DNA of 64,000 bases from an uncultured Solirubrobacteraceae bacterium. Its GTDB lineage: Bacteria; Actinomycetota; Thermoleophilia; Solirubrobacterales; Solirubrobacteraceae. Within the stretch, counting starts at the first letter, position 1. Every line of letters starts with the position of its first letter. Shown here piece by piece: positions 11,359 to 34,564 of the stretch. The translations under genes and the position numbers were made by a program. Location: contig CAZPQW010000006.1 of NCBI GenBank assembly GCA_964588985.1, forward strand, positions 32,001 to 96,000, given 5' to 3'. The notes beneath the pieces are model-generated. The model searched no databases. It was given only the letters and a program-made list of their open reading frames with translations, and had not been told where the DNA came from.

Positions 11359-12441
11359 GTGGCGATCGAGTTCTCACAGCGCATCCGGCGCATCCCCACC
11401 TACCCCGCCGCGGGCGGCTACGCCCAGCAGGAGCCGCTCGTTCGGCTTGCCTCCAACGAGGCGCCGTTCCCGCCGCTGCCCGAGGTGCGCGCCGCGATCG
11501 ACCGTGCGATGGGCACGCTCAACCGCTACCCCGACCCCTCCAACTCGCTGCTGCGCACGCGCATCGGCGAGCGCTACGGCCTGCCCAGCTCGCGGATCGC
11601 GATCGGCAACGGCTCCTGCGACATCCTGCTCGCCGCCGGCGAGGCGCTGCTCGAGCCCGGCGCGGAGATCGTCTACGCGTGGCCGTCGTTCTCCGTCTAC
11701 CCGCACCTCGCCGCCGCCTCCGGCGCGCGCGCGATCACCGTCCCGCTCGACGCCGATGAGCGCCACGACCTGCCCGCGATGCTCCGCGAGATCACCGTCG
11801 CGACGCGCCTCGTGATCGTTTGCAACCCCAACAACCCCACTAGCACCGCCCTGCCGCTCGCGGAGATCGCGGAGTTCGTCGCGGAGGTTCCGCCGCACGT
11901 GTGCGTGATCGTCGACGAGGCCTACTGCGAGTTCAACCTGCTCGACGACCCGGACGCGTCGATCGACCTGCTCGCCGCGCACCCCAACCTCGCGCTGCTG
12001 CGCACCTTCTCCAAGGTCCACGGGCTGTGCGGGCTGCGCGTCGGCTTCGCGCTATGCGGATCGGAGGAACTGCCGCGCGCCCTCGACCAGGTACGCCAGC
12101 CGTTCTTCTGCAACGCGCTTGCCCAGGCCGCCGCCGTCGAGGCGCTCGCACACCAGGACACGGTGATCGACCGCGTCACGCGCACCGTCGCCGAGCGCAT
12201 CTCCGTCGACGAGCGCCTGCAGGCGCTCGGGCTCACCGCCGCCGAGTCACAGGCGAACTTCTGTTGGGTGCACCTCGGAGACGATCGCGACGAGGCGCAG
12301 ATCATGCGAGGCCTGCAGGAACGCGGCGTGCTAGTGCGCGCCGGCGCGGCGCTCGGCAGCGACACGCCCGCGCTGCGCGTCACCTACGGGCTGCCCGAGG
12401 AGAACAGGCGCTTCCTCGACGCGCTCGCCGAAGTCCTCTGA
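11359..12441 (+). CDS. hisC: Histidinol-phosphate/aromatic aminotransferase
   Basis: LASNEAP, NRYPD, CNPNNPT, VDEAY, RTFSKVHGLCGLRVG. Confidence 0.9.
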   Translation: MAIEFSQRIRRIPTYPAAGGYAQQEPLVRLASNEAPFPPLPEVRAAIDRAMGTLNRYPDPSNSLLRTRIGERYGLPSSRIAIGNGSCDILLAAGEALLEPGAEIVYAWPSFSVYPHLAAASGARAITVPLDADERHDLPAMLREITVATRLVIVCNPNNPTSTALPLAEIAEFVAEVPPHVCVIVDEAYCEFNLLDDPDASIDLLAAHPNLALLRTFSKVHGLCGLRVGFALCGSEELPRALDQVRQPFFCNALAQAAAVEALAHQDTVIDRVTRTVAERISVDERLQALGLTAAESQANFCWVHLGDDRDEAQIMRGLQERGVLVRAGAALGSDTPALRVTYGLPEENRRFLDALAEVL

Positions 12442-12508
12442 GCGTTATCGCCGTCTCTCATTCCTTTACCGCGGCGCGATTGTCTGCTACAACGCACTGA
12501 GGACGACC

Positions 12509-12592
12509 ATGAACACTTCGGCTCCCGCAACCTCACGCCCCACCCTCGCGTATGCCGCCTGGTCGCTCCGTCACGCCTGGCGATTTAGCTAG
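12509..12592 (+). CDS. Putative leader peptide MNTSAPATSRPTLAYAAWSLRHAWRFS (aromatic amino acid attenuator)
   Basis: GAGG SD before the ATG; Tyr, Trp, Trp and Phe codons clustered near the stop; lies directly upstream of DAHP synthase. Confidence 0.65.
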   Translation: MNTSAPATSRPTLAYAAWSLRHAWRFS

Positions 12593-12770
12593 GCGCTTCG
12601 GCCCGCACCCGTTCGTGAGCGGATGCAGATGGGTCGCAGGGGTCCCGTCGGGGACCGAGCGCCACTCACGCGGGTGCGATTTGCGCCCTCCCTCACGGAG
12701 CCGGACGAGCGTCAGCTGAAGCGCGGATGCTCGGCACCTCTAACATCCCCCAGGCGTCAGTGAAAGGATG
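12573..12770 (+). promoter_or_regulatory. Structured leader RNA upstream of aroF
   Basis: Stems CGCACCCG(12604-11)/CGGGTGCG(12671-78), CGTGAG/CTCACG and GGTCCC-gtcg-GGGACC. CATCC(12744-48) can pair with GGATG at the aroF SD (12766-70). Confidence 0.55.
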
Positions 12771-12775
12771 AATCG

Positions 12776-13810
12776 ATGATGATCGTCATGAAAGAGACCG
12801 CGACCGAGGAAGAGGTCGCCGCGGTCGTAGCCAAGATCGAGCGAGCCGGCGCGCGGGCGCACCGCAGCTCCGGCGCCCGCGTGACCGTGATCGGGGCGAT
12901 CGGCGACGTGGAGCAGGACGCGAACATCGAGAGCCTCGGCCTCGAGGGCCAGCCCGGCGTGGACAGGGTCGTGCCGATCCTCAAGCCCTACAAGCTCGCC
13001 TCCGCGCAGATCACCCACGGCGAGCGCACCGTGCTCGACATCGACGGACGCAAGGTGGGTGGAGAGAACTTCGCGCTGATCGCCGGGCCGTGCACGGTCG
13101 AGTCGCGCGATCAGATGCTCACCACCGCGCGGGTAGTGCGCGACGCCGGCGCGACGCTGCTTCGCGGCGGCGCCTACAAGCCGCGCACCTCTCCCTACGC
13201 CTTCCAGGGGCTCGGGCAGGAGGGGCTGCGGCTGCTCGCGGAGGCCAAGGCAGAGACAGGCCTGCCGATCGTCACGGAGCTGATGGACATCTCCGACCTC
13301 GACGCGGTGCTCGAGGTCGCCGACGTGATCCAGATCGGTGCGCGCAACATGCAGAACTACCCGCTGCTCGCCGAGATCGGCCGCTCCGGGCGCCCCGCGC
13401 TGCTCAAGCGCGGGCTGTCCGCCACACTCGACGAGCTGCTGATGGCCGCCGAGTACATCCTCAAGGAAGGCAACCCCAACGTGATGCTCTGCGAGCGGGG
13501 GATCCGCACGTTCGAGACCGCGTACCGCTTCACGCTCGACCTGATGGCGGTTCCCGTGTTGAAGGAGCTCACGCACCTGCCGATCATCGTCGACCCCAGC
13601 CACGCCGCCGGCCGGCGCGACCTCGTCGGCCCGCTGTCGCTCGCCGCTGCCGCCGTGGGCGCCGACGGGATAATCGTCGAGGTGCACCCCAACCCCGACG
13701 AGGCGATCTGCGACGGTCCCCAGGCGCTGAGGGCGGACGGCTTCGCGGAGTACGCGCAGACGGTCGAGCGCGCCGCCGCATTGGCTGGCAAGGCGCTCAG
13801 CGCCGTCTGA
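12776..13810 (+). CDS. aroF: DAHP synthase type I-beta with N-terminal regulatory domain
   Basis: [43 protein letters not shown]. Confidence 0.93.
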
Positions 13811-33037: not shown

Positions 33038-34564
33038 GTGCGAGGCGCGACGCTCACCCGGCCGGGAACGACGCCGGGCTCCACCCGGCCTGCGCCGCTG
33101 CGTGCCGTGAGCGTCCCCACGTGGGCGCGGATCGGCCTCGCGGCGATGTGCGTGGGGGCGGTGGTCGGCTACTTCGCCTTCCCCACATATCCCACGTACG
33201 ACTCGTTCTACGCGCTGCTGTGGGGCCGGGACCTGCTGCACCTGCACCTGCCGGACTTCCGGGTCTACCGCGGTCCGACCGAGCATCCGCTGGCGATCGC
33301 GTTCGGGATGCTCTGCTCGATCTTCGGGCAGGGCGGCGCGCGGCTGATGGTGTTCGGCTCGATCGCGTCGTTCGTCGCGGCGGTGGCCGGCGTCTACCGG
33401 CTGGGGCGGCTGTGCTTCGGGCCGGTCGTCGGCCTGCTCGCGGCGCTGCTGCTGCTGAGCCGCTTCTTCGTCGAGAACCTCGCCGCCCAGGGCTACCTGG
33501 ACATCTCCTACCTCGCGCTGATCGTGTGGGCGATCGTGCTCGAGGTCGAACGATCCCGCCGCGGGGTGCCCGTCTTCCTCGTGCTCGCCGCCGCCGGCCT
33601 GCTGCGTCCCGACGCGTGGGTGCTGAGCGGCGTGTACTGGCTGTGGTGCGCGTGGCCCGCAAACAGCCGCACGCGCCTGCGATATCTCGCGCTGGCGGCG
33701 ATCGCGCCCGTGCTGTGGGTCGGGACGGACTGGGTGGTGACGGGCAACCCGCTGTACTCGCTGACCGCCACCGCGGGCCTCGCCCAGGAACTGGAACGCA
33801 CCCAGGGGTTCGGGAGCGTGTTGGGATCGACATGGAGCTACACCGACAGGATCGACAAGCTCCCCGTGCTGCTCGGCGCGATCGTCGGGCTTCCGTTGGC
33901 GGTCTGGATGGCCCCACGACGGGTGCTCGTGCCGCTGGTGGCGCTGATCCTGCTGTTCGGTGTGTTCCTCGCCGAGGGCGCGGTCGGCGCGTCGGTGATC
34001 GACCGCTACCTGATCGGCGCGGCGAGCGTGGCGCTGCTGTTCTGCGCGGTCACGCTCGGCGGCTGGGCGATGCTCGAGCGCGGCTCGAAGCTACGCCGCG
34101 CGTGGATCGCGGGCGCGGCCGCGCTGCTGCTGTTCGGTGCGGCCTCGGCGGCTAAAACGCTCAGCCTGACGAGCCTGCGCACCACGCTCGCCTACCACGA
34201 GGACTTCCACCAGGGTCTCGCGAGCGCGCTGAAGAGTCCCGCGGTGAAGTCGGTCCTGCGACGCTGCCCGCTGCTGTCGCTGCCCAACAACAAGCTGATT
34301 CCCGACGCCCGCTGGATCCTCGACACGGTCGGCCAGCACGACATCGTCGCGCGCAGCGAGTCGCGGGCGGATGTCGAAAAAGGCTCGCACGCGCTCGAGC
34401 ACCGTCTAGCCCACGGCAGTGTGGCCGTCTACCCGCTCGGCAGCGCCGTGTTCGTGGAGGCGATCGTCGACGTGGGCGACGACCCACGCGACCAGGTGCC
34501 GCTCCCCGGATACCGGCGGATCTACAACAGCCGCTACTACGCGGTGTATGACAACTGCCGATAG
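33038..34564 (+). CDS. Multi-pass membrane protein, GT-C-like
   Basis: N-terminal TM followed by loop PTYDSFY; many TMs; LRPDAW and DRYL motifs; soluble C-terminus. Confidence 0.55.
   Translation: MRGATLTRPGTTPGSTRPAPLRAVSVPTWARIGLAAMCVGAVVGYFAFPTYPTYDSFYALLWGRDLLHLHLPDFRVYRGPTEHPLAIAFGMLCSIFGQGGARLMVFGSIASFVAAVAGVYRLGRLCFGPVVGLLAALLLLSRFFVENLAAQGYLDISYLALIVWAIVLEVERSRRGVPVFLVLAAAGLLRPDAWVLSGVYWLWCAWPANSRTRLRYLALAAIAPVLWVGTDWVVTGNPLYSLTATAGLAQELERTQGFGSVLGSTWSYTDRIDKLPVLLGAIVGLPLAVWMAPRRVLVPLVALILLFGVFLAEGAVGASVIDRYLIGAASVALLFCAVTLGGWAMLERGSKLRRAWIAGAAALLLFGAASAAKTLSLTSLRTTLAYHEDFHQGLASALKSPAVKSVLRRCPLLSLPNNKLIPDARWILDTVGQHDIVARSESRADVEKGSHALEHRLAHGSVAVYPLGSAVFVEAIVDVGDDPRDQVPLPGYRRIYNSRYYAVYDNCR

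Follow-up and report, generated by a model that had tools for sequence, protein, structure and literature searches.

In the enterobacterial attenuators trpL and pheL, a helix just after the stop codon of the leader is blocked by the terminating ribosome, a local hairpin competes with it, and a 3:4 terminator carries a U-tract. The ilv and thr attenuators are multivalent, and the arrest peptides TnaC and SpeFL, whose conserved residues are spread along the ribosomal tunnel, turn their genes on in the presence of ligand. The element described here lies upstream of aroF, the gene for 3-deoxy-7-phosphoheptulonate (DAHP) synthase, the entry point of the shikimate pathway, in a 64-kb stretch of DNA (hereafter the window) from an uncultured member of the Solirubrobacteraceae (contig CAZPQW010000006.1). 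The organism belongs to the Thermoleophilia, an abundant, barely cultured class of soil actinobacteria. The element comprises a short open reading frame (ORF) that ends in a cluster of aromatic codons and an RNA helix, P1, that begins on the stop codon of this ORF. Comparison across related loci suggests that the two together form a ribosome-mediated attenuator.

Several described actinobacterial systems resemble parts of this arrangement. In Corynebacterium glutamicum the leader aroR (Phe-Tyr-Phe) stands before aroF; it is reported to respond to Phe and not to Tyr, and to raise transcription upon stalling (Neshat et al., 2014; PMC11802643, PMC4046766). Since aroR has already been described, attenuating DAHP synthase by a leader peptide is not new. 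In Mycobacterium tuberculosis the upstream ORF (uORF) of ilvB1 contains LVVI codons, and a ribosome at its stop codon is said to mask about 26 nt and to prevent the anti-terminator from forming (PMC13236596). Rho-linked conditional termination at translated uORFs has been reported in the same species (bioRxiv 10.1101/2022.06.01.494293). The leader peptides of Streptomyces lividans are reported to be transcribed leaderless, and trpL2 of this species to have hairpins with no U-rich stretch (PMC8079986).

A leader ORF conserved upstream of aroF

The 334 bp gap (12442–12775) between hisC (11359–12441) and aroF (12776–13810) contains, on the + strand, an ORF of 27 codons and a TAG stop (MNTSAPATSRPTLAYAAWSLRHAWRFS; 12509–12592). 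Its sole aromatic residues, Tyr15, Trp18, Trp24 and Phe26, all fall within the last 13 codons. A first-pass annotation, made on the window alone, had singled out this ORF as a candidate attenuator leader, and the ORF, its aromatic codons and every motif listed with it were found where that annotation had placed them. Among the 360 short ORFs of the window, two have at least four aromatic residues in their last 13 codons, a rarity that on its own is weak evidence and not decisive. The other such ORF (34192–34344, minus strand) ends ...ARPWWKSSW and overlaps long ORFs.

The relatives used for comparison were the best 80 of 596 confirmed matches to the AroF protein in species-representative genomes. 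These 80 loci, almost all from metagenome-assembled genomes (MAGs) of Solirubrobacterales or Thermoleophilia, have aroF identities of 62–92% to that of the window. A motif-anchored search (RF-x-TAG-GCG) recovered an ORF ending in Arg-Phe-x-TAG followed by GCG in 61 of the 80 loci, as in the window, at a distance of 86–234 nt upstream of aroF. These 61 loci and the window make up the set of 62 sequences analysed below, the kinship of which means that shuffle controls overstate independence. Trp precedes the Arg in 58/62, the stop codon is always TAG and the next base is always G. An exact copy of the 15-nt block CGATTT-NN-C-TAGGCG is present in 59 of the 80 loci, once per locus. The first-pass annotation had made its idea depend on a uORF with aromatic codons being conserved in relatives, and with 61 of 80 loci the idea survived the comparison.

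The leader remains with aroF at loci where hisC lies 750–2735 nt away or is absent (L025, L026, L027, L030, L031, L032, L043, L044, L049, L050, L052 and L058). Since the linkage to aroF persists with hisC distant or missing, the leader belongs to aroF and not to hisC. Among the 19 loci outside the 61, one (L039) has just 38 nt of upstream sequence, and 17 with aroF identities of 62–65%, most of them with different neighbouring genes, lack a leader ORF of this kind. A start codon could be placed in 60 of the 62 leaders, giving peptides of 14–46 residues (median 28.5), of which the N-terminal two thirds are conserved neither in length nor in sequence.

Control codons at the leader end

The control-codon zone of the window (12551–12586, + strand) comprises Tyr15 (TAT, 12551–12553), Trp18 (TGG, 12560–12562), Trp24 (TGG, 12578–12580), Arg25 (CGA, 12581–12583) and Phe26 (TTT, 12584–12586). 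Across the family, aromatic residues occupy 293 of 780 of the last 13 positions (37.6%), compared with 24 of 951 earlier positions (2.5%) and 3.9% of the AroF proteins. The enrichment is specific to the reading frame: at codons −13 to −5, aromatic triplets make up 176/558 in the leader frame versus 13/558 and 29/558 in the two alternative frames. Outside the fixed end, the positions and identities of the aromatic residues vary from member to member while the content is retained, and in 58 of the 60 leaders all three of Trp, Tyr and Phe are represented among the last 13 residues. The suggestion that one leader carries codons for all three aromatic amino acids at the first step of the shikimate pathway is therefore borne out across the family. 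The leader is thus a short upstream ORF rich in codons for the end-product amino acids, a feature by which leader attenuators are recognized.

Codon choice in the leaders also departs from that of the downstream gene. The ratio TAT:TAC is 48:45 in the leaders versus 10:411 in the aroF genes, and TTT:TTC is 17:36 versus 8:355. At the leader end the choice is fixed, with CGA at codon −3 and TTT at codon −2 in 62/62 and TGG at codon −4 in 58/62; CGA accounts for 103 of 1480 Arg codons in the aroF genes. The last residue is variable (Ser, Ile, Thr, Arg or Leu), with the Arg and Phe before it invariant in all 62.

RNA structure at the leader stop codon

The helix P1 (12592–12663, + strand) has as its first pair the G of the TAG stop codon. 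In the window its 5′ arm is GGCGCT(T)CGG (12592–12601) and its 3′ arm CCGAGCGCC (12655–12663); in family terms the stop-codon G together with GCGCTCGG pairs with CCGAGCGCC 30–110 nt downstream, and the helix starts at the stop G in all 62 sequences. In the alignment of the 62, 99.5% of the 372 cells of the six outer pairs are paired, compared with 24–66% in slid controls. Compensatory changes occur at two pairs, in 28 cells (C–G to U–A and U–A to C–G), a level matched in 0 of 500 shuffles. The median fold energy of the P1 domain is −36 kcal/mol. Covarying stems had been anticipated in the first-pass annotation; covariation was indeed found, at this helix starting on the stop codon and not in the stems on which that annotation had laid stress. 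The ORF, its codon bias, the P1 helix and the position of that helix are all established by comparison of the related sequences.

In the near group of 24 sequences, which consists of the window and its closest relatives, two hairpins (P1a and P1b) lie inside P1, and the domain forms a three-way junction; distant members have a plain hairpin. In the 23 near-group sequences aligned for the junction (L018 was left out), 88% of cells are paired versus 27–47% in slid controls, and 36 cells are doubly changed versus 14.4 ± 2.8 in shuffles. P1a (12605–12626, + strand; GCACCCG, loop TTCGTGAG, CGGATGC) is 78% paired with three compensatory pairs and has a conserved loop sequence, CGTGAG (12614–12619), and P1b (12641–12656, + strand; GGTCCC, GTCG, GGGACC) is 90% paired with compensatory changes at all five pairs. 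The last two bases of P1b overlap the inner end of P1, which leaves the junction ambiguous. The long hairpin spanning 12604–12678 that had been proposed earlier was rejected: its 8-bp complement (12604–12611 with 12671–12678) exists in the window, a complement of at least 7 nt recurs in just 2/24, and the comparative fold is P1 with P1a and P1b.

Downstream of P1, the hexamer CTCACG (12692–12697, + strand; second copy at 12665–12670) is complementary to the P1a loop and is a candidate pseudoknot partner. Of the 24 sequences, 21 have a 6-nt complement of this loop on the 3′ side of P1 (15 with Watson–Crick pairs only), compared with about 5 expected from shuffles, and in L001 the loop and its complement have changed together (CGCGAG with CTCGCG). 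The two may form a pseudoknot, for which these related sequences provide moderate support. A small GC-rich hairpin also follows P1 (12672–12688, + strand; GGGTGC, GATTT, GCGCCC). Hairpins of at least five pairs occur there in 19 of 24 near-group sequences, which is weak evidence, and RNAalifold applied to the stretch downstream of P1 did not recover it. A chain of six GGCG/CGCC segments linking P0 (described below), P1, the small hairpin and the distal site near aroF fits the near group by eye and fails in distant members, and was rejected.

A second, local hairpin, P0 (12574–12595, + strand; CGCCTGGC, loop GATTTA, GCTAGGCG), spans the stop and the four codons that precede it, and the segment GGCG is common to P0 and P1. 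Its energy is −15.7 kcal/mol in the window, with a family median of −12.6 kcal/mol. P0 contains the local pairing over the stop codon noted in the first-pass annotation, ACGCCTGG (12573–12580) with CTAGGC (12589–12594), which indeed lies within the almost invariant block. It is conserved as sequence alone, without covariation; it is weak (−0.8 to about −4 kcal/mol) where the Trp or the preceding codon differs, and is not universal.

A variant leader was found in L051, about 150–230 nt before aroF (locus start 3233). It ends ...RYLRWRF and keeps TGG CGA TTT, the stop codon is lost, and the ORF runs on for 10 codons and enters a P1-like helix at its 5′ arm (GGTGCTCG with CGAGCGCC). This form could be a true divergence or an assembly error.

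The invariance of the leader end could have a different origin, in which the C-terminal Trp-Arg-Phe-x-stop slows release through contacts in the tunnel, possibly in response to a free aromatic amino acid, besides or instead of the sensing of charged tRNA. Arg and Phe (62/62) and Trp (58/62) would then be the constrained residues, with the last residue and the remainder of the peptide free. The retention of TGG CGA TTT in L051 despite the moved stop, and the constant TAG followed by G, are consistent with such an arrest peptide, and an arrested ribosome covering the 5′ arm of P1 would regulate in the right direction, with expression OFF at plentiful amino acid. However, the synonymous positions are also fixed (CGA and TTT), which points to a constraint at the level of RNA or codon speed, the same bases build the loop and stem of P0, and the variable aromatic codons further upstream would be left unexplained. 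We consider an arrest-peptide sensor to be quite unlikely.

The conserved block could also have no cis-regulatory role as a leader, and represent a small functional peptide, or a protein- or ligand-binding site in RNA or DNA with an incidental reading frame. The identity of CGATTT-NN-C-TAGGCG across 59/80 loci does go beyond what a stall zone needs, and the near-group junction with its candidate pseudoknot resembles a ligand-binding fold. On the other hand, distant members have the plain hairpin only and no Rfam family matches. The variation in the N-terminal two thirds, in length (14–46 residues) as in sequence, and the shifting of aromatic positions with their content kept, are the signature of control codons and not of a folded peptide, and the aromatic enrichment is frame specific. 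An explanation of this kind is very improbable.

Probable promoters and the leader translation start

A TGn motif with a −10-like box, TACAAC (12488–12493; with TGn 12485–12493, + strand), ends 15 nt before the leader ATG and is probably the leader promoter. Such a box is present before 48 of 60 leaders, in 45 cases with TGn (TACAAA 26 times, TACAAC 13 times), and in 44 of the 48 it ends 8–16 nt before the leader start. The leader transcript therefore probably has a very short 5′ end. In the window a −35-like TTTACC (12464–12469, + strand) stands 18 nt before the −10-like box; TTG is found 16–18 nt before the box in 20/60 relatives, and the pattern TTGCCN-17 nt-TACAAA is frequent, also at loci without an adjacent hisC. 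A consensus promoter scan did not call the −10-like box of the leader. The window leader is preceded by GAGGA (12499–12503), taken in the first-pass annotation as a ribosome-binding site (RBS). A conserved RBS for the leader is not seen in the family.

A second box of the form TAnnnT (TAACAT, 12741–12746, + strand) lies 30 nt before the aroF ATG, with no −35 box evident. Exactly one TAnnnT occurs between −40 and −25 of aroF in 37 of 62 sequences, compared with about three expected by chance (an estimate from base composition), in forms that include TAGAGT, TAGGAT, TAAGAT and TAACAT. It is probably a second promoter that serves aroF directly. TAnnnT was also considered as an RNA partner of the leader ATTTAG, and about 25 of the 37 hexamers fit a bulged pairing by eye; with T1, A2 and T6 fixed and C common at position 3, a −10 box fits better.

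Access to the aroF Shine–Dalgarno sequence

The leader and P1 could act on translation instead of elongation by governing ribosome access to the aroF RBS, in the manner of the occluded Shine–Dalgarno (SD) sequences of mycobacterial cysteine genes. The aroF SD is GAAAGGA (12762–12768, + strand) and is invariant in the 24 near-group sequences. The distal complement of ACGCCTGG, CCAGGCGT (12750–12757, + strand), lies 5 nt before it and does not touch the SD itself. A complement of at least 6 nt for this distal pairing is present in 23/62 compared with 8.9 expected, leaving 39/62 without one. By duplex energy the pairing is not significant (mean z = −0.57, with 8/62 at p ≤ 0.05), and it is absent from the group formed by L010, L012, L013, L015 and L019. 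The distal pairing proposed at the outset is thus present in the window and enriched in the family, but remains a minority feature.

The output was further assessed by modelling SD access in the 62 sequences with a ribosome at the stop codon, at Trp −4, at −6 and at −10; the model is thermodynamic, and is blind to pseudoknots and kinetics. Within this model the accessibility of the aroF SD and start is the same at all ribosome positions (means of 0.44–0.46, Wilcoxon p of 0.11–0.87). The earlier proposal that CATCC (12744–12748) sequesters GGATG in the SD region (12766–12770), or pairs with GGATG at 12725–12729, likewise fell to chance level, with 5/22 against 5.7 expected. The absence of a terminator and the enriched complement near the SD speak in favour of translational attenuation, and uORF–SD pairing in cysteine genes of M. 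smegmatis is mentioned in PMC13236596. The flat accessibility, the chance-level CATCC/GGATG pairing and a distal pairing that misses the SD and is absent from most members all argue against it. Control through occlusion of the aroF RBS is consequently unsupported, and we regard translational attenuation as unlikely. For the mechanism first suggested, aromatic sensing with translational or Rho-dependent control, the sensor is therefore supported by comparison and the translational branch of the output is not.

Proposed mechanism and termination

Taken together, the leader ORF, its control codons and P1 are best read as a ribosome-mediated attenuator of aroF-tyrA-aroA, and we give this sensor-and-switch reading as a whole a probability of about 0.7. 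Stalling itself, the choice of the ON state and the output are what we infer from these features. In the proposed mechanism, a transcript starting a few bases before the 27-codon ORF would act as the sensor, with the ribosome stalling at the rare aromatic codons when charged aromatic tRNAs are scarce. A ribosome stalled upstream would leave both arms of P1 free, and P1 would fold once its 3′ arm has been synthesized. A ribosome that reaches the end of the leader would instead cover the 5′ arm, so that P1 is blocked while the polymerase proceeds. This terminal ribosome would be slowed by the stop and by the invariant rare codons CGA and TTT, which may lengthen the kinetic window. Folded P1 would be the ON state, in which transcription reaches aroF, and blocked P1 would lead to early transcript ends. 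The assignment of ON to folded P1 is made because the aromatic codons at −13 to −5, if they are the functional stall sites, are too far upstream for a ribosome there to melt P1. The TAnnnT box 30 nt before aroF would probably provide a basal, unregulated transcript.

With neither a canonical terminator nor a conserved partner for the 3′ arm, the premature end would most likely be produced by Rho, loaded onto the C-rich leader RNA, or by a terminator that consists of a hairpin only. The leader RNA has more C than G: the pooled C/G ratio is 1.39 compared with 0.92–0.99 in the flanking genes, and it exceeds 1.3 in 69% of leaders versus 0% of flanking segments. In the window C/G peaks at 2.3 over 12500–12559; the C-rich stretch is short (about 60–80 nt) and is itself the translated ORF. 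Hairpin and T-run terminators number 16 in positions 1–60000 of the window, compared with about 19 expected from shuffles. This lack of excess suggests that the organism seldom uses canonical intrinsic terminators. A Rho-type output is favoured because of the C-over-G skew of the leader RNA and the lack of excess of canonical terminators in the window, but this assignment of the output, taken by itself, is tentative, and we would give it somewhat less than even odds.

Several observations weigh against the attenuator. No hairpin followed by a T-run was found on the + strand between 12000 and 13200, and none was seen in the relatives; the earlier statement that the gap holds no U-tract terminator is thereby upheld. 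The 3′ arm of P1 has no conserved downstream partner in a duplex search (mean z = −0.05, with 4/62 at p ≤ 0.05), and since it lacks such an alternative partner the classical 3:4 element is missing and the OFF step is unexplained. With a median of −36 kcal/mol against −12.6 kcal/mol, P1 is far more stable than P0 and would form in both states at equilibrium; the model therefore works only within a kinetic window that opens once the 3′ arm has been synthesized. The fold of the whole gap is no more stable than shuffles (z = −0.61; −0.92 for the other strand). Translation of the leader is assumed, with an SD-like 4-mer upstream of only 7/60 leaders. In L038 and L072 the conserved WRFS end is not in the same frame as the sole ATG close to the −10-like box, a shift that resembles a 1-nt indel and may be a MAG sequencing error. 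The probable TAnnnT promoter between leader and aroF would bypass the attenuator. Finally, selection by motif means that divergent leaders such as that of L051 are counted too rarely, and it accounts for part of the invariance seen in the motif.

The same structure can be read with the opposite logic, with P1 as a terminator without a U-tract for the hisC/leader transcript and aroF normally transcribed from the TAnnnT promoter. A ribosome on the last codons (Trp −4, Arg −3, Phe −2 and stop) would then cover the 5′ arm of P1 and allow readthrough. P1 is stable, GC-rich, directly after the stop and upstream of the promoter-like box, the invariant codons are those nearest to it, TTT follows it directly in L005, L011 and L038, and canonical terminators are not in excess in the window. 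However, most members have no T-run after P1, and a ribosome with Trp −4 in its A site ends just before P1 by our estimate of ribosome cover. Ribosomes stalled at the aromatic codons −13 to −5 would be too far upstream, P1 would form, and starvation would lower expression, which is the wrong direction for a biosynthetic gene. This reversed scheme appears distinctly improbable.

An extension of the attenuator is also conceivable, in which the fixed Trp-Arg-Phe-x-TAG end (CGA and TTT in 62/62, across aroF identities of 68–92%) serves to slow release or to arrest the ribosome, and so keeps it standing on the 5′ arm of P1. Two signals would in that case be read by the leader, charged tRNA upstream and possibly free aromatic amino acid at the stop, and the leader would drive a terminator-less switch made of the junction and pseudoknot, with Rho loading or a kinetic trap as output. 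We put this forward as a speculative and rather doubtful possibility.

Gene context and annotation

By NCBIfam the cluster around the element comprises an aroH-type chorismate mutase, hisC, DAHP synthase, prephenate dehydrogenase and aroA. The putative target gene, aroF (12776–13810, + strand), matches NF006421 at 1.6e-141, with TIGR01361 covering residues 79–330, and is followed by tyrA and aroA. The leader peptide has no NCBIfam match. A search of the 64-kb window with Rfam (Trp, Phe, His, Leu and Thr leaders, T-box and others) gave nothing at gathering score, and at a permissive E-value the region 12300–12900 gave chance-level matches only (E ≥ 1). Among these, an archaeal C/D-box small nucleolar RNA at 12772–12809 (17.7 bits, gathering score 40, E = 1) was dismissed as a chance match brought about by the run ATCGATGATGATCG where aroF begins.

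In 12 loci aroF and tyrA are separated by an additional gene of about 1.1 kb: L002 (5043–6152) and, judged by spacing, L006, L008, L009, L011, L014, L032, L053, L068, L069, L074 and L078. The L002 gene, the only one of the twelve checked, encodes another DAHP synthase, this one of AroFGH type (7e-145); two different DAHP synthases would then stand in tandem behind one leader. In L053, L068, L069, L074 and L078 (aroF starts 3965, 3968, 3968, 3950 and 3977) aroF itself lacks the first ~66–86 residues, which correspond to the N-terminal domain of the window enzyme, with the leader and P1 retained. Two contigs carry unexpected names: L018, titled as a Chlamydiae bacterium, has an aroF with 81% identity to that of the window together with the full leader and operon, and L063, a Bifidobacterium breve MAG, has an aroF with 64% identity. 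Both look like mis-binned Solirubrobacterales or Thermoleophilia.

The element provides a conserved, testable regulatory signal for aroF-tyrA-aroA in at least 61 species-level genomes, many of them from soil Solirubrobacterales. It is annotated neither as a gene nor as an RNA family, and could enter both kinds of annotation. It offers a natural case of a single leader that combines control codons for Trp, Tyr and Phe with rare synonymous codons at the stall sites and lacks a canonical terminator, and would be a useful system in which to study attenuation in high-GC bacteria with few U-tract terminators.

Comparison with known attenuators

The first-pass annotation had remarked that such an element was not known from the Thermoleophilia. 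This agrees with the absence of any description in Rfam or among the literature matches listed: a search combining Solirubrobacter or Thermoleophilia with leader peptide or attenuation gave nothing relevant among those matches. A term search of a 2005 survey of actinobacterial attenuators gave no occurrence of aroF, aroG, DAHP or pheA.

The closest described parallel is aroR of C. glutamicum, likewise a short aromatic leader ORF that in an actinobacterium directly precedes the gene for a DAHP synthase. By its published description, on which alone the comparison is based, aroR encodes Phe-Tyr-Phe, whereas the leaders here have Trp, Tyr and Phe in 58/60 and no terminator was found to follow them. 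The Corynebacterium DAHP synthase is presumably of another subtype than the Bacillus-type enzyme of the window. As in the ilvB1 uORF of M. tuberculosis, an actinobacterial uORF combines several kinds of regulatory codon. Unlike in ilvB1, which has a Rho-independent terminator with a U-tract at +126, no such terminator was seen here. Rho-linked conditional termination at M. tuberculosis uORFs is a further parallel, in which premature ends are tied to translated short ORFs in a high-GC actinobacterium; the C-over-G skew of the present leaders would suit a site of Rho loading. The position of the −10-like box, ending 8–16 nt before the leader start in 44/48, recalls the leaderless transcripts of S. 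lividans; none of the eight leaders listed in Table 4 of that study serves DAHP synthase or mixes three aromatic residues.

Enterobacterial trpL and pheL are leader-peptide attenuators of transcription (PMC11802643). The placing of control codons a few codons before the stop is shared with them, as is the start of an RNA helix beside it, and P0 would correspond to their competing local hairpin. In contrast to trpL and pheL, P1 has no partner for its 3′ arm, there is no U-tract and no match to an Rfam leader, and the distance from stop to gene (86–234 nt) is long and variable. The invariant C-terminal pattern beside the stop, with an RNA element just downstream, resembles TnaC and SpeFL, but just three residues are fixed here and the synonymous sites are fixed too. 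The fixed TGG CGA TTT NNC TAG block and the missing terminator are unexplained by these precedents, and the element could in these respects exceed the known class. On present comparison it is a new family within the known class of leader-peptide attenuators.

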